From: a virus
Lineage: Duplodnaviria > Caudoviricetes
Length of the DNA stretch: 64,000 nt
IMG/VR virus record: IMGVR_UViG_2639763012_000002
Location: 29,914 to 93,913 of that record
Direction: 5' to 3' (one strand)
Below, piece by piece: positions 886 to 60,892 of this stretch. Numbering within the stretch: position 1 is the stretch's first letter; each line of letters begins with the position of its first letter. The notes below the pieces were generated by a model, which was given only the letters and a program-made list of their open reading frames with translations, made no database searches and had not been told where the DNA came from. The position numbers were made by a program, and so were the translations under genes.

Positions 886-1050
886 CTTCCTCCCCCGCCT
901 AAAGGCGGGGGATTCCAGCGGTCGCCCGCTGGGTTTCCTGCTTCACCAACGACCGCCCCGTCCGGGAGGACTCCCGTTGAGGTCTTACACCGTCTCCACA
1001 GGCAGACGCCGCCAGCCCGGCGGCCAGGATGTTGCGTGCCGCGTTCACGT
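862..1050 (-). ncRNA. Predicted TnpB omegaRNA (reRNA); guide about CCCGTCGGCACCTCCGTATC
   Basis: TnpB reRNAs are known to overlap the tnpB 3' end and right end and to take their guide from flanking DNA (862-881); the 5' boundary is a guess. Confidence 0.6.
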
Positions 1051-2268
1051 CACGGTCATGCGCCGTGCCGCACTCGCACGTCCACTCGCGGACGTTGAGC
1101 GGCATCTTCGCCGTGACCGTGCCGCAGGCCCCGCACAGCTTGCTGGAGGGGAACCAGCGGTCGATCACGACGAGTTCACGCCCGTACCAGGCGCACTTGT
1201 ACTCCAGCATGGAGCGCAGTTCCGTCCACGATGCGTCCGAGATAGCGCGCGCCAGGGAATGACTCTTCAGCAGGTTGCGGACCGACAGGTCCTCGATCAC
1301 GACCACTTGGTTCTCATGGACGAGTCGAGTCGACAGCTTGTGCAGGAAGTCACGACGCCGGTCGACGATCCGCGCATGGACCTTGGCCACCTTGCGCCGG
1401 GCCTTCTCCCGGTTCGCCGATCCCTTCGCCTTGCGGCACAGCTCACGCTGTGCCTTCGCCAGGCGCGCCCGGTCCCGCCGTTCATGCCGGGGATTGGCGA
1501 TCTTCTCCCCGGTGGACAGGGTCACCAGCGAGGTGATGCCCGCGTCGATGCCGACCGCCGCCGTGGTGGGCCGTGCCGGGGTAATGGTGTCCTCGCACAG
1601 CAGGGACACGAACCAACGTCCGGCACTGTCGCGAGAGACGGTCACCGTCGTCGGTACCGAACCTTCGGGAAGCGGACGCGACCAACGGATATCCAACGGC
1701 TCGGCCATCTTCGCCAGCGTCAGCTTCCCGTCGCGCCACTTGAAGGCGCTGCGGGTGTACTCGGCCGACGCGCGGGACTTCTTCCGGCTCTTGTACCGGG
1801 GGTACTTCGCCCGCTTGGCGAAGAAGTTGGCGAACGCCGTCTGAAGATGTCTGAGCGCCTGCTGGAGCGGGACGGAGGACACCTCCCTCAGGAAGGCGAG
1901 TTCCTCGGTCTTCTTCCACTCCGTGAGCGCGGTCGAGGACTGCACGTAGGAGACACGGCGGTGTTCGCCGTACCACGCGCGAGTGCGCTCCTCCAGCGCC
2001 TTGTTGTACACGAGACGGACGCAGCCGAACGTGCGCGACAGCTCAGCTGCCTGCTCGTCCGTGGGGTAAAAGCGGTACCGAAAAGCCCGCTTGACCTGCT
2101 GCGTCATGCCTCACATTCTATCAACTTCCCTGTCAGCGCCGGGCGTTGGCTGTTGGCCGGTGGACGCCGGTCCGCCCTGGCGGCGAACCGGCTTTCCCTG
2201 CCCTGCTCCGCAGGAGCTTCGTTTCCTCCCCGACCTGAAGGCCGGGGTATCCACGAAGGAAGGCGCCG
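882..2268 (-). mobile_element. IS200/IS605-family (IS1341-type, tnpB only) insertion sequence
   Basis: Subterminal hairpins CCCCCGCC-TAAA-GGCGGGGG (892-911) and CCCCGACC-TGAA-GGCCGGGG (2228-2247). On the minus strand the right end finishes in TCAA with guide GAAT; left-end guide GATA predicts a TCnT target and TCAT lies at 2269-2272. No tnpA. Confidence 0.9.
899..2107 (-). CDS. tnpB: RNA-guided endonuclease TnpB
   Basis: N-terminal AFRYRFYPT HTH; RuvC-I GIDAG; RuvC-II VIEDL; CxxC...CxC zinc finger; RuvC-III HDRDVNAARNI; D-E-D triad intact. Confidence 0.96.
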   Translation of the reverse strand: MTQQVKRAFRYRFYPTDEQAAELSRTFGCVRLVYNKALEERTRAWYGEHRRVSYVQSSTALTEWKKTEELAFLREVSSVPLQQALRHLQTAFANFFAKRAKYPRYKSRKKSRASAEYTRSAFKWRDGKLTLAKMAEPLDIRWSRPLPEGSVPTTVTVSRDSAGRWFVSLLCEDTITPARPTTAAVGIDAGITSLVTLSTGEKIANPRHERRDRARLAKAQRELCRKAKGSANREKARRKVAKVHARIVDRRRDFLHKLSTRLVHENQVVVIEDLSVRNLLKSHSLARAISDASWTELRSMLEYKCAWYGRELVVIDRWFPSSKLCGACGTVTAKMPLNVREWTCECGTAHDRDVNAARNILAAGLAASACGDGVRPQRESSRTGRSLVKQETQRATAGIPRL

Positions 2269-25598: not shown

Positions 25599-25872
25599 CC
25601 GGACGCCGATGAGTGCCCGCGCGACGCTGGAGGTCATGGTCCGCACGGGCCGGGGCCAGATGACGGTCTGGTCTCCGACCGAGGTCAAGCAGGCGCTCGA
25701 CCGCTACCGGGCTGAGGCGCGGGCCGACGTGCTGGTCGAGCAGGCCGACGAGATGGTGGACGCCTGCCCGGCGCACGGGGAGGCCGAGGAGGCGTGGACG
25801 GTGTGCCACTGCGAGGTCGCCGACGAGATGCGGCGCCTCGCCGACCTGATGCGTCCGGGAGGTGACCGGTGA
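25591..25872 (+). CDS. Hypothetical protein
   Basis: Coupled ORF with C/H cluster. Confidence 0.55.
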   Translation: MANRTPMSARATLEVMVRTGRGQMTVWSPTEVKQALDRYRAEARADVLVEQADEMVDACPAHGEAEEAWTVCHCEVADEMRRLADLMRPGGDR

Positions 25873-26939
25873 GCGCGACGACCAAGATCGAATGGACGGA
25901 CGCTACATGGAACCCGGTGACGGGCTACACGAAAGTCTCCCCAGGGTGCGACAACTGCTACGCGGAGACGCTGGCGGAGCGCTTCCGGGGCACCGGCGGC
26001 CACTACTTCGAGCAGGGCTTCGACGTGACATTGCGGCCGGAAAAGCTGCTGGAGCCGCTGCGGTGGCGGAAGCCGCGCCGGGTGTTTGTCAATTCGATGA
26101 GCGATCTCTTCCATGCCTCGGTGCCGGACGAGTATGTGGCGCGGGTGTGGGCGGTGATGGCCCTGGCCCCGCAGCACACATTCCAGGTGCTGACGAAGCG
26201 GCACGGGCGGCTGCGGGCGCTGCTCAGCAGCCCCCAGTTCCGGGAGCTGTGCGAGGCAGAGTGGAACTGGTTGGTGGGCGACGAGTCCACTCCGATGCCG
26301 CAGTACCGGCGTGACGCGTTCATGCGGCAGTGGTGGAGCGAGTTCTCCAGGCCGTTGCGCAACGTCTGGTTGGGCGTCTCTGCGGAGGACCAGGAGCGCG
26401 CCGATCTGCGGGTGCCGGCCCTGTTGGAAACGCCGGCTGCTGTGCGGTTCCTGTCCTGTGAACCACTCCTCGGGCCGATCGACCTCGAAGGGCCGCTGGA
26501 CGGGCCCGGGACCCGCCGGCAGTTGACGTACTGGCTGACGGGACGCCCCGGGGTCGGGGCGCCGAGCCCGACGCTCAGCGGTGTGGACATGCGGCCCCTG
26601 ACGGTGGGGCCGCGCCTTGACTGGGTGATTGCTGGGGGTGAGTCCGGGCGCGGTGCGCGTCCGATGCACCCCGACTGGGCCCGCCGGCTGCGGGACCAGT
26701 GCCAGCAGGCGGGCGTGCCGTTCCTGTTCAAGCAGTGGGGCGAGTACGTGCCGACTGGCTACCTGGTGATCGGTGGCACGGGCAGCGGCACGCTGGCCTT
26801 CAAGGACCCGGTGGACGAGTTGGGCCACCGGGTGGAGGTGCGGCGCGTGGGGAAGGGGCGCGCTGGCCGTGAGTTGGATGGACGGGTCTGGGACGAGTTC
26901 CCGACCCCGAGCCGGGCGCGCGGGGGTGAGGCGTCGTGA
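25869..26939 (+). CDS. DUF5131 (phage Gp37/Gp68, radical-SAM-like) protein
   Basis: TKIEWTDATWNPVTG.TKVSPGCDNCYAE, FVNSMSDLFH, FLSCEPLLG, WVIAGGESG, FKQWG. Confidence 0.92.
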   Translation: MSATTKIEWTDATWNPVTGYTKVSPGCDNCYAETLAERFRGTGGHYFEQGFDVTLRPEKLLEPLRWRKPRRVFVNSMSDLFHASVPDEYVARVWAVMALAPQHTFQVLTKRHGRLRALLSSPQFRELCEAEWNWLVGDESTPMPQYRRDAFMRQWWSEFSRPLRNVWLGVSAEDQERADLRVPALLETPAAVRFLSCEPLLGPIDLEGPLDGPGTRRQLTYWLTGRPGVGAPSPTLSGVDMRPLTVGPRLDWVIAGGESGRGARPMHPDWARRLRDQCQQAGVPFLFKQWGEYVPTGYLVIGGTGSGTLAFKDPVDELGHRVEVRRVGKGRAGRELDGRVWDEFPTPSRARGGEAS

Positions 26940-27655
26940 GCGTGGAAACCCTCACTGCCGAGCTGCCGGCCGATGTGGAGGCCCTGCGGGAGCTGTGTCT
27001 GGCGCAGCGGGAGCAGCTGCGGCGGCTGGAGCGGGACGCGTTGACGGGGCTGCTGCGGCGTGAGCCCTGGCACGACCGCGCGGAGGCGTGGCTGGCCGAT
27101 CCGGAGACCGGCCCGTGGGCGCTGGCATTCCTGGATCTGGACGGGTTCAAGCCGGTCAACGACCGGCTGGGGCACGCGGCCGGCGACGAGCTGCTGCGCG
27201 CCATCGGTGGCCGCCTCTCCGCGTGGGCCGAGCGGGCGGGCGCTCTGGTTGGCCGGCTGGGCGGCGACGAGTTCGCCGCGCTGTGGCCGTCTGCCGGGCC
27301 GGAGGCGGCCCGAGTGGGGGCGGCCGAGGTGGCGCGGCGCATCGCCGTCCCGGTGCTGCTGACCGGGGACGGGCTGCCGCCTGCTGTGCGCGGCGCCCAG
27401 GTACGGGTGACGGCCTCGGTCGGCGTTGTTCGGCAGGCGGACCATCCGGACGCTGGGCTGGGCGAGTTGCTGGGGCTGGCCGACGCGGCGATGTACCGGG
27501 CCAAGGAGGCCGGCGAGGCCGGCGCTCCGGGGCCCCGGGTGTGGCTGGCCGACCCGGACGTCGCCGCATGGCGCGAGCGGGCTGCCTGCCAGCGGCCGGC
27601 TGGTGAGCGGCGGGCGGGACGGCCCTACCCAGCCCCCACCACCCCGCCCGAATAA
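26936..27655 (+). CDS. Stand-alone diguanylate cyclase (GGDEF)
   Basis: DALTGL, DLDGFKPVNDRLGHAAGD, GRLGGDEF, ADAAMYRAK. Confidence 0.93.
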   Translation: MSVETLTAELPADVEALRELCLAQREQLRRLERDALTGLLRREPWHDRAEAWLADPETGPWALAFLDLDGFKPVNDRLGHAAGDELLRAIGGRLSAWAERAGALVGRLGGDEFAALWPSAGPEAARVGAAEVARRIAVPVLLTGDGLPPAVRGAQVRVTASVGVVRQADHPDAGLGELLGLADAAMYRAKEAGEAGAPGPRVWLADPDVAAWRERAACQRPAGERRAGRPYPAPTTPPE

Positions 27656-29542: not shown

Positions 29543-30187
29543 ATGATGGACGACTACGAAACGCCCGACGCTCTCGAAGCGCTGCTCGACGACCTCCGCC
29601 TACCGGCCGGCGTCCACGCTGCCGTGCTGTCCGATACCAGCGCATACGACAACAGCCTCGTCACGCGCTGCGTGGTGTGGAGCGACCGCCCCGACCGCAC
29701 TTGCCCCATGTGCACGCAGCCCATCAATCAGGACCTGAGCGAGTACTGCCCGGTCGTCCTCGACGGCAGCGCGGCCCCCGCCCCCACGGTGCTGGACCGA
29801 GACCAGGAGCACGGCTGCGGGCACTGGCTGGCCGTCTACACCGACGTCGTGCAGGGCACCGGAGATGAGGGCGAGGTCACCGAGGCCGACGTCCTCGAAT
29901 CCGCGCAGGGGGTTGCTGAGGAGCTGCGTGACCACAAGCAGAGGCTCCACGAAGCGGCGATGCGGAGACTGCACGAGGAGCTGACGGACGTGCTGGAGAG
30001 GCTGGCCGCGCCCCTCGCCCCTGGCGAGACCAGGCGGGAGAGGGAGGAGTCGCTGGTCACTGGCAGCGAGATGTATCCCGGCGCCTTCCGCAACGACGGT
30101 GGCCAGTGGGTCGCCTGGGACTACAACCCCAACCTGCCCGGCGAGATCATCGAGGTTACCGCTGACGCGGACCGCCGGGCGGGCTGA
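29543..30187 (+). CDS. Hypothetical protein
   Basis: GGAGGAG RBS; acidic. Confidence 0.65.
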   Translation: MMDDYETPDALEALLDDLRLPAGVHAAVLSDTSAYDNSLVTRCVVWSDRPDRTCPMCTQPINQDLSEYCPVVLDGSAAPAPTVLDRDQEHGCGHWLAVYTDVVQGTGDEGEVTEADVLESAQGVAEELRDHKQRLHEAAMRRLHEELTDVLERLAAPLAPGETRREREESLVTGSEMYPGAFRNDGGQWVAWDYNPNLPGEIIEVTADADRRAG

Positions 30188-33556: not shown

Positions 33557-33585
33557 TCGACCCAGCCGCGCCGCGCTATAGTGCT

Positions 33586-33615
33586 AACCTCATCGCCCCT
33601 ACGAGGGGACCCCTG
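33586..33615 (+). repeat. Solitary type I-B-like CRISPR repeat unit
   Basis: AACCTCATCGCCCCTACGAGGGGACCCCTG; 21 contiguous nt match the recalled Streptomyces-type I-B repeat GTCCTCATCGCCCCTACGAGGGGTCGCAAC; TATAGT -10 box at 33577. Confidence 0.65.
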
Positions 33616-33666
33616 CCAGCCAGCCGTGGCCCATGGTGCGCCACGGCCGACCGACGGACGGCCCTC

Positions 33667-35115
33667 GTGCACTACGGCGACCGCGACGGATACGGCCAGT
33701 ACGGCATCCTGGACGACGACGGCGAGCGGGTGCTGTGCCACGAGTGCGGGCGGCGCTACCGCCAGCTCCCGTACCACATCAATCGGGCGCACGGGATGAC
33801 GGCAGTCGAGTACCGGGCAGCCCACGGCCTGAGCGTGACGCAGCCGTTGGCGTCCGACAGCCTGACGGCGACGCAGCGCGCCAACTCCACCAGGGTCTAC
33901 GCCCAACGCCCCGACATCCGGGCCATGCTCGCCGACGCGCTGAGCCGGGGCTGCTCCGCGGCGGCGTCCCGGGCTGCGCAGGCCGCCGCGCCGGACTCCC
34001 TCGCCCGTGCCGCCGAGCGGCATCGCCGCCGGGTCGCATCTGCTCGCCTGGCGGAGCGCGAGCGGGCCGCGAAGCGGCGCAGGCTCGACGAGGCCGCCCG
34101 GGCTCACGGCTATGCCGATATCGACGCGTGGCTGACGGATCACGCGGATCTCACCGCCAGCCAGATCAGGGAGGTGCTGGGGGTGTCGGGGGCAGCGGCG
34201 CGCGAGTTGCGGCGTGGCGTGGTCAGCGCGCAGCGACCAAGCGCGCTGGCCAAGGAGCGCGCCATAGATAGGGTGATCGATGGCGAACAGCTCAGGGCCG
34301 TGGCCCCAGACGCAGGAGTGGGCCCGGATGCACTGCGGGCGTGGGTAGTCGCCTCCCCCCAGGGCGTGGCAGCAGCCACGGCGGCCGGCTACGCGGACGC
34401 GGGCACATGGCTCACTGAACGCTCCCGTGTGAACGCCGATATGCGCCGGGCTGCTGTAGATGTCGTCAGCGGCGGAGAGTCCAAAGCGGCGGTGGCTCGA
34501 CGGCTCGGCGTCAGCGATGTGGCTGTGGGGAAGTGGGTTCGGGCTGCGGGCCACCGTCAACGCCTGGAGCCGGGGATCGACACAACGCCCCAATCCACTC
34601 CTCCAGCGTCGACTCGGGAGGTCGAGCGGCAGCGCGCGTACGACGAGATCCGCCGCCTGTGGCTCACCGGCATGACGCTCCAGCAGATCGGGCTGCAGGT
34701 CGACCGATCCCCGTCTAGCGTGTCCCACGCCGCGCGCCGCCTCGGCCTGCCCCCGCGCCTCACACGGGCATCGGACGAGTCGATCCAGCGGGTGCGCGAG
34801 CTGTGGCCTGACAGGTCGCTCACCACGGACGAGATCGCGCGCCAGGTGGGCGTCTCGCGTGCGTCGGTCTCCTACATCGCCCACCAACTGGGGCTGCCCC
34901 GCCGTCGCGCAAAAGAGCGACTGCGCGGTGAGCAGCTACGGACGGCCCGCGCCCGGCTGCCCGAGCTATGGATGGACGAGTCCCTGAGTCTGCCGGCCAT
35001 CGCTCAGCGGCTCGGGGTCGGCAGCTCACCGACCCTGTCCAGGTGGGCGCGCGAGATGGGCCTCCCGCCAAGGAGTCGGGGGCGGAAACGGCCGCACCCC
35101 AAGAGTGATCGCTGA
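33667..35115 (+). CDS. ROS/MucR-type zinc finger plus multiple tandem HTH protein
   Basis: VLCHECGRRYRQLPYHINRAHGMTAVEYRAAHGL followed by about 5-6 HTH units (e.g. KAAVARRLGVS, LQQIGLQVDRS, DEIARQVGVS, PAIAQRLGVG). Confidence 0.75.
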   Translation: MHYGDRDGYGQYGILDDDGERVLCHECGRRYRQLPYHINRAHGMTAVEYRAAHGLSVTQPLASDSLTATQRANSTRVYAQRPDIRAMLADALSRGCSAAASRAAQAAAPDSLARAAERHRRRVASARLAERERAAKRRRLDEAARAHGYADIDAWLTDHADLTASQIREVLGVSGAAARELRRGVVSAQRPSALAKERAIDRVIDGEQLRAVAPDAGVGPDALRAWVVASPQGVAAATAAGYADAGTWLTERSRVNADMRRAAVDVVSGGESKAAVARRLGVSDVAVGKWVRAAGHRQRLEPGIDTTPQSTPPASTREVERQRAYDEIRRLWLTGMTLQQIGLQVDRSPSSVSHAARRLGLPPRLTRASDESIQRVRELWPDRSLTTDEIARQVGVSRASVSYIAHQLGLPRRRAKERLRGEQLRTARARLPELWMDESLSLPAIAQRLGVGSSPTLSRWAREMGLPPRSRGRKRPHPKSDR

Positions 35116-35702
35116 CAGACGACGTCGCACTCGTCGACCTCCTGGTCCACTGGATCGAGCAGCCGGAGGACCAGCGGGAGCGGGTGACGCGGATGTCGGA
35201 GCTCGTGGGCGCCCTCCCCACCCGCAGCGCCTCGGAGCGGCTCCTGCGGCGCGTGCGCGACGAGGCGCCCGCTGACGCCGTGGCAGCCTGTGCGGAGGAG
35301 ACGCGCGAGCGGGCGGCCCGCAGGGCGCGGGGGGAGAGGAATCCTCCCGTGCCCGGTCGGGGCCGTCGGGCCGCGGTCGCCCGTGTCATCAGGCAGACCG
35401 ACCGCAACATCCGGAACCTCTACGAGGCGCAGCTGGCCGCCCGGGCGGAGGCGCGCGAGCCGCGCCGCCTCCGTCCGCCGGATGACGCCTACGCGATGCT
35501 GCCCGACGCCCAGGCCGCGGTGGACGAGGTCAGGCGAGCCCGGGACGCCTACTACGCGGCCATCGCCGACGCCCTGCCGCCCCACACCGCGGGGACCCGG
35601 CCCAGCGGGGCCGACGCTGCCCGCTTCGCCGAGGTGCGGTCGGTCACCGGCCTTGATCCCGCGCACCTACGACGCATCCAGCGCACCGTCCACGCCCGTT
35701 GA
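35112..35702 (+). CDS. Hypothetical helical protein (start uncertain: CTG 35112 or GTG 35184)
   Basis: Frame open from the CTGA overlap with the upstream stop; possible C-terminal HTH (VRSVTGLDPAHLRRI). Confidence 0.55.
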   Translation: MTDDVALVDLLVHWIEQPEDQRERVTRMSELVGALPTRSASERLLRRVRDEAPADAVAACAEETRERAARRARGERNPPVPGRGRRAAVARVIRQTDRNIRNLYEAQLAARAEAREPRRLRPPDDAYAMLPDAQAAVDEVRRARDAYYAAIADALPPHTAGTRPSGADAARFAEVRSVTGLDPAHLRRIQRTVHAR

Positions 35703-35777
35703 ATCACACAGAGTGGGTAGCACGGCGGCAGCCCGGCCGTTATCGTGTGGGGCACGCCCGCTGAGCGGGTTGAGACC

Positions 35778-35908
35778 CTTTTCCCCGCATGAGCGGGGGT
35801 GAGCCCACGTACAGCTACTCGCATACGTGTAGCCCCTCGTGGTCCCCGCGCCAGCGGGGGTAACCCAGCTGCGGTCTCTTGTGTCCCCGCGCAAGCGGGG
35901 GTGACCCT
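35778..35908 (+). CRISPR. Degenerate type I-E mini-array, 3 repeats (29 bp), spacers 32 and 12 bp
   Basis: R1 35778-35806 CTTTTCCCCGCATGAGCGGGGGTGAGCCC; R2 35839-35867 GTGGTCCCCGCGCCAGCGGGGGTAACCCA; R3 35880-35908 TGTGTCCCCGCGCAAGCGGGGGTGACCCT. Confidence 0.88.
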
Positions 35909-35922
35909 ATTCTCGCCTCCCT

Positions 35923-36543
35923 GTGATTGCCGTGTATCGAGTCCTGTACGACCTGCCGTCCCTGGGGTACCTGCGTCCGTCCGAGGTGTGGCGGGGCATC
36001 ACCTCCCGCGTGCCGACGGAGCACACGGAAGCGTCTGAGGGCCCGCGACTGCTCTGGCGTCTGGAATCCCCCACAGAACTCCTGGTCCAGTACCCTGTGC
36101 GCCCGGACCCCACATGGCTGCTACCGGGCGCGCGCAGCCGTCCCAAGGCGTTCGCCATGCAGCAGCTCATGGATTCGCTGGCCGCCGGCCAGCGGTGGGA
36201 CTTCGTGTTGGCCGCCAACACGGTCCGCCGATCAACCGGACGAGCACGTGCCCGGCAGGCGCAGGCCCAACGGGTGTCGGCACGAGAGTGGCTCACAGGT
36301 GAGACGGATGTGGATGCTGACAGCGGCACGTCCCGCGCGTACCAGTCCGGATTCCGGGTGCTGGCAATCGCCGAGACCACTCAGCGCCGCGGCGGCCCGC
36401 GCCAGGCGCACTTGGTGCGCATCACAGGTCGCCTGGAGGTTGAGGACACCGAGGCGCTGCAAGCCGCCCTTGAGGAAGGCATTGGCCGAGGGAAGGCCCA
36501 GGGGGCCGGGATGCTATCCCTCTCCCCGCTACCGCGGGGTTGA
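35923..36543 (+). CDS. cas6e: Orphan type I-E Cas6e (Cse3/CasE)-like protein
   Basis: LLWRLE...LLVQ...PDPTWL, GQRWDFVLAANTVR, GRLEVED..AL..AL.EGIGRGKAQGAGML G-rich loop. Confidence 0.9.
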   Translation: MIAVYRVLYDLPSLGYLRPSEVWRGITSRVPTEHTEASEGPRLLWRLESPTELLVQYPVRPDPTWLLPGARSRPKAFAMQQLMDSLAAGQRWDFVLAANTVRRSTGRARARQAQAQRVSAREWLTGETDVDADSGTSRAYQSGFRVLAIAETTQRRGGPRQAHLVRITGRLEVEDTEALQAALEEGIGRGKAQGAGMLSLSPLPRG

Positions 36544-36658
36544 TCCAAGTTCCGGGTTGGCCACCTGTGGTGGCTTGCACTGAATCCCCGCGTGCGCGGG
36601 GATGCCCCGATGAGGATGCCGTGGACACCACGGCCCCTGCATACGCGGGGAGAGATCA
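36519..36658 (+). CRISPR. Second degenerate type I-E mini-array, 3 repeats, spacers 33 and 20 bp; first repeat overlaps cas6e 3' end
   Basis: R4 36519-36547 CCTCTCCCCGCTACCGCGGGGTTGATCCA; R5 36581-36609 TGAATCCCCGCGTGCGCGGGGATGCCCCG; R6 36630-36658 ACGGCCCCTGCATACGCGGGGAGAGATCA. Confidence 0.75.
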
Positions 36659-36687
36659 ACGAGACCCCGGCCACGCCGGGGTCTCGT
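36659..36687 (+). terminator. Hairpin closing the array/cas6e unit
   Basis: ACGAGACCCCGGC-CAC-GCCGGGGTCTCGT. Confidence 0.65.
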
Positions 36688-36722
36688 CGTGTCCCGCTCG
36701 GTCGGCTGGGCACAATGCCGAG

Positions 36723-37439
36723 GTGACGATCAACACCATCCCCGGCCGCACCCTGTCCGCCTCCGTGCTCGCCACGGTCCTCACCCTGACCGCCGTGGCA
36801 TGCACGGAAGCTGACGACGCGGCAGCCGACACCAGTACCAGCGGCAGCCCCAGCGCGCCGGCCGACGACGCCAACCCGCCAGCCGACGACGGTTCCGACG
36901 CGGGCGGCACCGAGGCCGGGGACGCGCTCGCCCTACTCGCCGAGCTGGAGGTCGCTGCCGAGGACCGCACCGGCTACGACCGTGACCTGTTCGACCATTG
37001 GTCCAGCCAGGGCAACAACTGCAACACCCGCGAGGCCGTCCTCGCCCGCGACGGCCAGGACGTCGAGACCGACGACCAGTGCCGCGCCACCGCCGGCACC
37101 TGGGAGTCCGTCTACGACGGAGAGACCTGGACGGACGCCGCCGACCTCGACATCGACCACGTCGTGCCGCTCGCCGAGGCATGGGACTCCGGCGCCGACA
37201 CCTGGACCGACGAAGAGCGGGAGGCGTTCGCCAACGACCTCGACGGGCCGCAGCTGCTGGCCGTCACCAGCAGCGTCAACCGCGCCAAGGGCGACAAAGA
37301 CCCTGCCGAATGGATGCCGCCGCTGGAGTCGTACCACTGCACCTACGCCGCGGACTGGATCCAGGTGAAGCACGACTACGGCCTGGCCGTCGACCAGGAC
37401 GAGCACGACGCCCTGACCGGCATCCTGGAGAGCTGCTGA
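36723..37439 (+). CDS. Secreted lipoprotein HNH endonuclease (DUF1524-like)
   Basis: Lipobox LTAVAC; GYDRDLF.HW, CNTRE.VL.RDG, DIDHVVPLAEAW.SGA, NRAKGDKDPAEW. Confidence 0.9.
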   Translation: MTINTIPGRTLSASVLATVLTLTAVACTEADDAAADTSTSGSPSAPADDANPPADDGSDAGGTEAGDALALLAELEVAAEDRTGYDRDLFDHWSSQGNNCNTREAVLARDGQDVETDDQCRATAGTWESVYDGETWTDAADLDIDHVVPLAEAWDSGADTWTDEEREAFANDLDGPQLLAVTSSVNRAKGDKDPAEWMPPLESYHCTYAADWIQVKHDYGLAVDQDEHDALTGILESC

Positions 37440-60044: not shown

Positions 60045-60892
60045 CAGGCGGCCCTCCCCGCACCGGCGTCGACCAGTTCCCGGGACTCGGCTGGCGGCGG
60101 CGTCAGCGCCTCGTAGGTGTTGCCGGCGCTGGCGTGCATCCACTTCGTGGTTTCCAGCGCGCCACGGAACGCCCGCCACGCCCGCCGGTCACCCGGCATC
60201 GGCACCAGCGCCCGCGACCGGCGCCGCAAGTTCAAGATCCCGGTGCGGGCCACGGCCGGCACCGCCATCTCGGAGTCGTCCGGCAGCAGCACGGTCTCGG
60301 CGTACCGCAGCGCGGCCAACTGCATGGCCTGCTCGGGGAAGACCTGCTTCGCCGGCCGCTTCGCCGACGTCTTGTAGTCGATCAACCACAACTCCAGCGA
60401 CCAGCCAGGGCCTGTGGGCAGCCAGATCAGGCAGTCTCCCGTGCCGGCATAGCCCAACGCCCTGTGCAGGAACGTCATCTCGGCGGCCTCAATGTGCCGA
60501 TCGAGATCGACTCCCCAGGACTCCCACCAGCGCGCCAACTGCCGCGCGTACGGGTCCACCTCGGGATCCGGCGGGTACGGGGCGCCCAGCGCCATCATGT
60601 GCGCCCGGTGGTGGATGCGCGTACCCAGATCGGCCGCGCTCTCCCGTGCGTCCCGGTGCACCTTCTTGATGTCCTTCAGCAGCTCCGCGCGGTCCCGCAG
60701 CGCACGCCGCGCCACGGTCAGCCGGTTGTTCACGCAGTACTCGGCCGTGACCTTCACGGCCCACGGAGTGATCGCGTGCTTCGCGACCCCGGTGGACAGC
60801 ACGTTGGTGACGGACACCAGGTCCGGGCCGCCCTGCGGGTCCTCGTAGTAACGCCCGTTGTCGGTCTCCCGGGCCCACCTCGGATCGGTCAC
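60044..60892 (-). CDS. PD-(D/E)XK RecB/RecE-like phage exonuclease
   Basis: SVTNVL, GTRIH, GYAGTGD, IDYKTS, QLAAL. Confidence 0.88.
   Translation of the reverse strand: MTDPRWARETDNGRYYEDPQGGPDLVSVTNVLSTGVAKHAITPWAVKVTAEYCVNNRLTVARRALRDRAELLKDIKKVHRDARESAADLGTRIHHRAHMMALGAPYPPDPEVDPYARQLARWWESWGVDLDRHIEAAEMTFLHRALGYAGTGDCLIWLPTGPGWSLELWLIDYKTSAKRPAKQVFPEQAMQLAALRYAETVLLPDDSEMAVPAVARTGILNLRRRSRALVPMPGDRRAWRAFRGALETTKWMHASAGNTYEALTPPPAESRELVDAGAGRAA

Follow-up and report, generated by a model that had tools for sequence, protein, structure and literature searches.

Two small type I-E-like repeat clusters around a solitary cas6e-like gene in a prophage: a tentative decoy reading of putative guide arrays

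The subject of this analysis is a 64,000-nt stretch of viral DNA (Duplodnaviria; Caudoviricetes), positions 29,914 to 93,913 of IMG/VR record IMGVR_UViG_2639763012_000002, referred to here as the window. It carries six 29-nt type I-E-like CRISPR repeats in two clusters (35778-35908 and 36519-36658, by coordinate extraction) on either side of a solitary cas6e-like gene. In a first-pass annotation, the spacers of these mini-arrays were taken to be guides for competition, repression or mimicry. The guide reading of the spacers is not supported here, and on this question neither a target nor an effector nor processing residues were found in the searches described below. The module is tentatively explained as a decoy of RNA and protein by which a phage would counter type I-E CRISPR-Cas, an explanation that is quite possible and somewhat short of probable. 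Among the three roles first proposed, mimicry or the formation of aberrant Cascades is the most plausible, and it gains from the adjacent Cas6e, which has no catalytic histidine (His). Mini-arrays and repeat mimics are already known; what is new here is a dedicated clade of His-less Cas6e and the pairing of arrays around its gene. The features of the locus are as follows.

35751-35778, + strand: possible degenerate repeat-like hairpin R0, uncertain, abutting R1 (from a relaxed motif scan, its stem halves having 2 mismatches; folds as a hairpin)
35778-35806, + strand: repeat R1, 29 nt, perfect stem, loop ATGA
35807-35838, + strand: spacer S1, 32 nt
35839-35867, + strand: repeat R2, loop GCCA (about 84-90% match to enterobacterial I-E array repeats)
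35868-35879, + strand: short spacer S2, 12 nt
35880-35908, + strand: repeat R3, loop GCAA, 23 nt ahead of the cas6e start codon
35932-36543, + strand: solitary cas6e-like gene, 203 aa
36519-36547, + strand: repeat R4, loop TACC, overlapping the last cas6e codons and the stop codon
36548-36580, + strand: spacer S3, 33 nt
36581-36609, + strand: repeat R5, loop GTGC
36610-36629, + strand: short spacer S4, 20 nt
36630-36658, + strand: terminal repeat R6, stem broken by a 1-nt insertion (T at 36638)
36660-36686, + strand: strong G+C-rich hairpin after R6, without a T-run (sequence and fold)

Each repeat consists of 5 nt, a 6-bp stem (CCCCGC/GCGGGG) around a 4-nt loop, and a further 8 nt. The stem is perfect (CCCCGC-N4-GCGGGG) in five repeats, R1 to R5. 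The base inserted in R6 is missing from a 99%-identical metagenome contig, in which the stem is perfect, and R6 is therefore regarded as a genuine repeat. The spacer lengths of 32, 12, 33 and 20 nt given in the first-pass annotation were confirmed letter for letter by coordinate extraction, as was the presence of one full-length and one short spacer in each half-array. The 610 nt separating R3 from R4 are the cas6e-like gene and not a spacer. Repeats, gene and terminal hairpin all lie on the + strand in a unit of about 0.95 kb, placed 3' of three + strand genes. Of 17 exact copies of the stem motif in the host genome (7.74 Mb), five fall within these 0.8 kb and are the only ones in the window, and a degenerate orphan array (C15) accounts for another three. 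Clustering of repeats at the cas6e locus is thus far above chance. The hairpin at 36660-36686 probably ends the transcription unit, although it is not a textbook intrinsic terminator because it has no T-run. A scan of 35300-37000 for promoter and terminator consensus sequences found none, so that the promoter was not located, and a scan of 35500-36900 against Rfam (E <= 1) returned no family.

The solitary protein is recognisable as a member of the Cas6e family. It matches Pfam PF08798 with an E value of 6.9e-25 (89 bits, against 231 for a canonical protein of the genus) and the PADLOC Cas6e model with an E value of 6e-26, and a profile search against the PDB returned Cse3/CasE matches. An AlphaFold (AF2) model has a pLDDT of 80.6, and the best Foldseek matches of this model are all T. 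thermophilus Cse3 (E 1e-12, TM 0.6-0.7). In this predicted structure the Cas6e/Cse3 fold is kept. Two lines of evidence place the start codon at 35932, namely the alignment of the family and a metagenome relative in which the GTG there is replaced by ATG; relative to this start, P0001, the public gene call of 177 aa, begins 26 codons too late. A word-based search of 5.8 billion proteins gave 8 relatives at 49-99% identity, one of them, P0001, being the window's own shorter gene call. An exhaustive profile search among 1.84 billion representatives left just 4 clusters at E <= 1e-30; a gap in E value from 7.7e-63 to 1.4e-16 separates these from the ordinary Cas6e proteins. Neither the viral contigs of IMG/VR nor the metagenome contigs of JGI yielded a relative of the protein. 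By tblastn, phage records were likewise empty, and the matches in 5 plasmid records were all canonical Cas6e at <=30% identity. Nine members of the clade (50-70% identity) have an intact gene, and 58 columns, including the glycine-rich C-terminal loop, are invariant among 8 of them. Judged by these sequences, the solo Cas6e is an intact, conserved and very rare clade.

The active site sets this clade apart. In a MAFFT alignment, the canonical Cas6e proteins of the genus have H in the column of the catalytic His (13/13), and the clade members have tryptophan (Trp, W; six proteins) or glutamine (Gln, Q; two proteins) there (8/8). The window protein has Trp at this position, as does the ninth member, P0009. 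In a profile alignment to T. thermophilus Cse3, W stands opposite the His of the YEMHR motif, and alanine, serine or threonine (Ala/Ser/Thr) stands opposite the tyrosine (Tyr) three residues earlier; H26 and Y23 are what we take to be the active-site numbering of that protein. In E. coli Cas6e, a His20Ala substitution abolishes cleavage (PMC4499155). The clade would then bind repeat hairpins without cutting them.

The association of gene and repeats recurs outside the window. Streptomyces sp. NPDC007346 (L007) has five repeats 5' of the gene, separated by spacers of 41, 31, 32 and 29 nt, and its neighbouring genes encode an amidase, a lectin-domain protein and a minor-tail homologue. S. montanisoli (L006) has two hairpins 14 nt apart 5' of the gene in a context that does not look like phage. 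Repeats therefore lie 5' of the solo cas6e in both other loci for which DNA is available, and in 3/3 when the window is counted. No synteny was found among the window, L007 and L006 beyond cas6e and its repeats; gene and repeats travel together across three unrelated genomic contexts.

Column conservation was calculated over 10 repeats, five from the window and five from L007, with R6 and the two L006 hairpins left out. Stem columns are 97-100% conserved, and the T before the stem (T5) is present in 10/10 repeats. The 5'-handle T occurs in 9/10 repeats, the handle G in 8/10 and the handle CC in 10/10. Conservation falls to 53% in the loop and to about 60% or less in the first four bases. Since the stems are invariant and the loops drift, selection rather than decay is indicated. 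The repeats keep both what Cas6e recognises (the stem) and what Cascade recognises (the T before the stem and the T-G..C-C handle positions).

In several respects the clusters resemble a canonical I-E array. The repeats are 29 nt long with an I-E hairpin and an 8-nt 5' handle, and blastn matches them to enterobacterial and Streptomyces I-E repeats. In arrays of the genus, whether plasmid-borne or next to a canonical cas6e, the repeats are near-identical and follow a 61-nt period, except for one 14-nt terminal spacer. That regularity was not found in the module: all six repeats differ from one another, and repeat-to-repeat spacing is irregular (61, 41, 62 and 49 nt). Heterogeneous repeats and irregular spacing argue against recent feeding of the clusters by Cas1-Cas2. 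Adjacent or genomic I-E cas1-cas2 or Cascade genes were likewise not found, Cas5e not being among the queries.

Metagenome relatives of the locus came from contigs of three DNA runs of one compost study; they are single low-depth contigs covering small shares of the stretch, and counts are small. In a diverged relative, the start of the gene, translated by eye from the loose end, agrees with P0002, which is 68% identical to the window protein, at 9/10 residues. R1 is unchanged in this relative over the part covered and R2 has one change, while S1 differs at 4/32 positions (about 87% conserved) and S2 at 3/12, with the short spacing after R2 kept. After 35882 there are 60 extra letters that open with a further repeat, giving one more repeat-spacer unit. 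The GTG at 35932 is replaced by ATG, and the 23-nt stretch from R3 to the start codon differs by 6 substitutions and has 4 extra bases. S4 is identical in a closer relative (99% over 36584-36727). As the same spacers recur in relatives with point changes, they are old and inherited rather than acquired. The two versions of S1, from the window and the diverged relative, differ at seed position 5 and therefore cannot both match one target.

Various collections were searched for targets of the spacers. In a blastn search of both clusters against 50,697 phage records (INPHARED) and 72,556 plasmid records (PLSDB) at E <= 10, the repeats were matched and no spacer was. Exact scans of IMG/VR for S1, S3 and S4 gave 0 matches, and S1 and S3 each matched 0/400 other genomes of the genus at <=3 mismatches. 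The best non-self matches in the host genome have 8 (S1), 10 (S3), 3 (S4) and 1 (S2) mismatches, which equals the best of 10 shuffles of each spacer. For partial matches, shuffled spacers also did as well as the real ones in the neighbourhood of the locus, in the window's share of the prophage and 5' of a canonical cas3, leaving no candidate match for scoring of the protospacer adjacent motif (PAM). No cross-targeting was found among the spacers of the window, L007, L006, the Streptomyces phage/plasmid ZL12 and two plasmid arrays.

The first-pass proposal that long spacers are directed at rival phages or plasmids thus gained no match in INPHARED, PLSDB, IMG/VR (exact), the 400 genomes of the genus or the host genome. 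Silencing of promoters by the short spacers fared no better: no I-E cas operon was found in the host, and partial matches do not surpass those of shuffled sequences. The BLAST check that had been suggested, for PAM-adjacent spacer matches in phages, plasmids, the host and the cas promoter, came back empty in every collection, which is weak evidence. Taken on their own, the negative target results are weak because of the exact or <=3-mismatch limits and the unsampled phage lineage; no phage in the collection has a large terminase (TerL) more than 43% identical to that of the prophage. With the lineage thus unsampled, missing protospacers say little. To our knowledge, most CRISPR spacers have no known match. 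The negative results gain weight because there is no effector, there are no processing residues, and the spacer lengths are odd. The G+C content of the spacers (0.56-0.70) is slightly low against a canonical mean of 0.70 and is not decisive. The idea of structured spacers was tried and rejected: there are small palindromes in S1, in S3 and at the S4/R6 junction, and the folding energies fall within the spread of 95 canonical spacers of the genus (mean -8.9 kcal/mol).

The host was searched for a type I-E system that could use the module. Queries for tblastn were taken from the Pfam-verified I-E operon of a genome of the same genus (L041), Cas5e not included, and no Cse1, Cse2, Cas7e, Cas1e or Cas2e was found in the whole host genome. 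Only two queries found matches, cas6e in the window gene at 28% identity and Cas3 in the helicase of a type I-B locus. The window gene is the sole Cas6e in the host genome, and no second Cas protein was found among the open reading frames (ORFs) of the window (80 ORFs against Pfam, 30 against PADLOC). Pfam searches of the whole host genome for Cas7e and Cse1 gave no match; this result is weak, as an E. coli control was also silent. By these searches the host has no type I-E Cascade or adaptation genes. Cas7e is absent by search from all 3 module-carrying genomes, with a control genome detected at E 1e-273. Finding an I-E Cascade in 0/3 carriers is uninformative either way because I-E occurs in about 10% of the genus to begin with: among 400 sampled genomes, 42 have some Cas6e, about 41 of them canonical and one of the solo clade. 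With canonical Cas6e in about 41/400 genomes, I-E hosts do exist for such a phage.

Other CRISPR elements were observed in the same host. A complete type I-B locus lies in C23 at about 390-400.3 kb and 450.5-452.1 kb (L003) and encodes Cas6b, a Cas8b-like protein, Cas7b, Cas5b, Cas3b, Cas1b and Cas2b. It has two arrays with a repeat unrelated to those of the module, and scanning for this repeat, 29 nt long, gave 42 spacers of 34-40 nt in the two regions. One 39-nt I-B spacer (C23:399937-399975) is a perfect match to the resident prophage at window positions 60176-60214 (C17:281965-282003), in the region of the exonuclease and the recombination directionality factor. This self-targeting spacer suggests that the I-B system is inactive, that the PAM is wrong or that the prophage encodes an inhibitor. 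The degenerate orphan I-E-like array occupies about 38.6-39.1 kb of C15, with a spacing of 60-61 nt and decayed repeats, and two single I-E-like repeat units are present at C22:890516 and C23:359288 of this genome, in which no I-E cas genes were found.

In the proposed decoy, the four spacers would be inter-repeat segments of two small, vertically inherited repeat clusters and not targeting guides. The Cas6e-like protein, with neither the catalytic His nor the catalytic Tyr, would bind the repeat hairpins in a non-cleaving manner. Repeat-mimic RNAs, two of them too short for a full Cas7 backbone, and the non-cleaving Cas6e would together either tie up Cascade subunits or block processing of the precursor of CRISPR RNA (pre-crRNA). 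We infer RNA binding, lack of cleavage and inhibition of I-E systems. The 12-20 nt between handle and hairpin would leave room for only two or three Cas7 subunits, which fits the aberrant-complex idea put forward for RNA anti-CRISPRs (Racrs; PMC10651486). Repeat-mimicking RNA anti-CRISPRs that form aberrant Cas6/Cas7 subcomplexes are presented in two reports as an established phage strategy, I-E included (PMC10651486, PMC11656645).

It is possible, if rather doubtful, that the module is a two-part anti-CRISPR made from CRISPR parts, in which a dead Cas6e and its own mimic RNAs with 12- and 20-nt pseudo-spacers jam I-E crRNA processing or Cascade assembly. If true, it would be without precedent both as an inhibitor derived from Cas6 and as a Racr with a protein partner of its own. 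Literature searches, with supplements outside their scope, returned no phage module that pairs mini-arrays or repeat mimics with a dedicated His-less Cas6e. If the protein binds without cutting, it would be an example of a Cas protein repurposed for counter-defence or for regulation through RNA binding, and with its hairpins it would provide a natural counterpart of the "dCas6e plus cognate hairpin" pairs employed in synthetic biology.

Several observations weigh against a decoy. Loss of the His is no proof of lost cleavage since atypical active sites exist in Cas6 proteins; a crenarchaeal Cas6 with such a site has reportedly been described. The 3 carrier genomes have no detectable I-E Cascade, which leaves nothing for a decoy to inhibit in these lysogens. 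No acr or aca (anti-CRISPR or anti-CRISPR-associated) gene was recognised beside the module from Pfam and PADLOC family matches of the neighbours, no Acr library having been used. The L006 hairpins are without a conserved 5' handle. S1 is better conserved than the adjacent untranslated stretch, which hints at a constraint at the sequence level that a pure decoy would not need.

It is unlikely that the spacers are genuine guides. In that case the array and a hairpin-binding Cas6e would form a portable crRNA unit that loads onto the Cascade of I-E-positive hosts, with long spacers excluding competitors and short ones giving non-cleaving, repressing or mini-Cascade complexes. The conserved stem and 5'-handle positions suit such a unit, as do the persistence of S1 beyond the adjacent untranslated stretch in the diverged relative and the identity of S4 in the close one. 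There are known cases of viral mini-arrays that enlist a host effector against related viruses (PMC11656645), and Cascade with a dead Cas6e is described as still interfering when given unit-sized crRNA (PMC4499155). With natural competitors unsampled, as the TerL comparison indicates, missing protospacers count for little. These points are opposed by the failure of any spacer to match in any collection searched, the absence of a detected I-E Cascade from the 3 carrier genomes, and a Cas6e without the residues needed for making crRNA. Spacers of 12, 20, 41, 29 and 14 nt are, moreover, not products of Cas1-Cas2, and the seed difference between the S1 variants (position 5) leaves no common target possible.

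A role with no link to Cascade is more doubtful than guides. The hairpins would then act in cis, the protein binding its own transcript at R3 and R4 for autoregulation or stabilisation, with the spacers as linkers and the real task of the protein elsewhere. Hairpins do stand directly 5' of cas6e in 3/3 loci, R4 extends across the stop codon, L006 keeps the stems only and not the handles, carrier genomes are without a Cascade found, and loops and spacer lengths vary freely. Against cis-regulation, handle positions are conserved in the window and L007, and we know of no reading of 5'-handle positions by Cas6e; furthermore, five or six copies exceed what autoregulation needs, and there are no further exact hairpin copies in the window that could serve as trans targets. 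Slightly less probable again is a decaying fragment of a captured I-E locus, consisting of cas6e and array ends and having no present function. Heterogeneous repeats, a broken R6 and truncated spacers have the look of decay, the host holds decayed I-E remains (the C15 orphan array and the single units in C22 and C23), and short terminal spacers also end other Streptomyces plasmid arrays. A remnant is at odds with the state of the gene, which is unbroken in 9 members and retains 58 invariant columns as well as the RNA-binding loop, and with invariant stems beside randomised loops, which denote selection and not decay. It is equally at odds with a gene-repeat linkage that holds across three unrelated contexts and with the short S2 spacing kept in the diverged relative. 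The decoy against type I-E remains the explanation that is tentatively adopted here.

The module shares features with several known systems and differs from each. Like the mini-arrays of viruses and prophages, it has one or two spacers between CRISPR-type repeats (two per cluster here) and is carried by a temperate phage without effector genes of its own (PMC11656645). Known viral mini-arrays have repeats identical to those of a host array, and most of their spacers match related viruses (PMC11656645). In the present case the active arrays of the host are type I-B with a different repeat, no match was found for the spacers in the collections searched, the repeats differ among themselves, and a cas6e-like gene lies between the arrays. 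Similarly, Racrs and solitary repeat units are phage-borne repeat mimics that keep the Cas6-binding hairpin, as the module does, and two I-E Racrs were shown to work (PMC10651486). By analogy, the short-spacer units of the module could seed aberrant sub-complexes as Racrs do. Racrs are single repeats without a Cas protein, whereas the module comprises six repeats with spacers and a His-less Cas6e homologue, with no neighbouring acr recognised.

Short or partly matching spacers are proposed to repress rather than cleave in CreA-type RNAs. Regulatory mini-arrays and cr-like RNAs resemble the module in that a mini-array lies beside cas6 and carries short or partly matching spacers proposed to repress; those described are part of cas loci that are complete, and their partial target, flanked by a PAM, is at a cas promoter (PMC10120712). 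For the module, neither a cas operon nor a partial target above chance was found, and there is no partial, seed-anchored, PAM-flanked promoter match among the sequences compared. Canonical Cas6e/Cse3/CasE proteins (T. thermophilus 2Y9H, 3QRQ and 1WJ9; E. coli 4DZD) have in common with the window protein the fold, the PF08798 profile and the glycine-rich C-terminal loop. The window protein differs in its 27-30% identity, its shorter N-terminus, the replacement of His by Trp/Gln and of Tyr by Ala/Ser/Thr, and its position outside a Cascade operon. As a Cas6e endoribonuclease it has the fold and family profile and not the catalytic His, W or Q being present in 9/9 clade members.

A close counterpart in layout is the mini-array of the Streptomyces phage/plasmid ZL12 (GQ919031, about 83.82-83.96 kb; L046 2941-3079). 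Its three I-E-type repeats enclose spacers of 32 and 20 nt, the last repeat is degenerate, and a hairpin follows, which is the layout of R4-S3-R5-S4-R6. The ZL12 mini-array is unannotated and intergenic, has no cas6e-like gene beside it, and its spacer sequences are unrelated to those of the module. A full-length spacer followed by a short spacer and then by a last, often degenerate, repeat is a recurring design, present in both window clusters, ZL12, a Streptomyces megaplasmid array (spacers of 32, 32 and 14 nt) and L006 (14-nt spacer). This recurrence of a full-length spacer, a 12-20-nt spacer and a last repeat calls for explanation.

That the mini-arrays are carried by a phage, as the first-pass annotation had claimed, is borne out by the genes around them. 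The window is part of an approximately 87-kb Streptomyces-type prophage (C17, about 200.6-287.3 kb) that runs from endolysin and terminase genes to a serine integrase. Genes for the endolysin, large terminase, portal, major capsid, major tail and tape measure proteins lie 5' of the window, the minor tail gene ends at window position 885, and the large serine integrase is directly beyond the window end. The region at 56-61 kb of the window encodes a Gp3-like recombination directionality factor, RuvC and an exonuclease. The repeat-cas6e unit is placed in the accessory region of this prophage. The next gene 3' of the unit encodes a lipoprotein-like DUF1524/GmrSD_C protein, which most likely starts at the GTG at 36723.

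Other genes of the window were observed in passing. Upstream of the unit by two genes, 33571-35115 (+ strand) encodes about 514 aa that include a ROS/MucR-like domain and at least 4 helix-turn-helix units in a run; ORF boundaries in the public record are ambiguous here, with two frames of high GC3 (G+C at third codon positions). An IS605-family TnpB gene (OrfB_IS605 and a Cas12f1-like TNB domain) lies at 899-2107 (- strand), between the minor tail gene and the next large gene. The stretch 25869-27655 (+ strand) holds two genes in succession, for a DUF5131 (phage Gp37/Gp68-like) protein and for a stand-alone GGDEF diguanylate cyclase.

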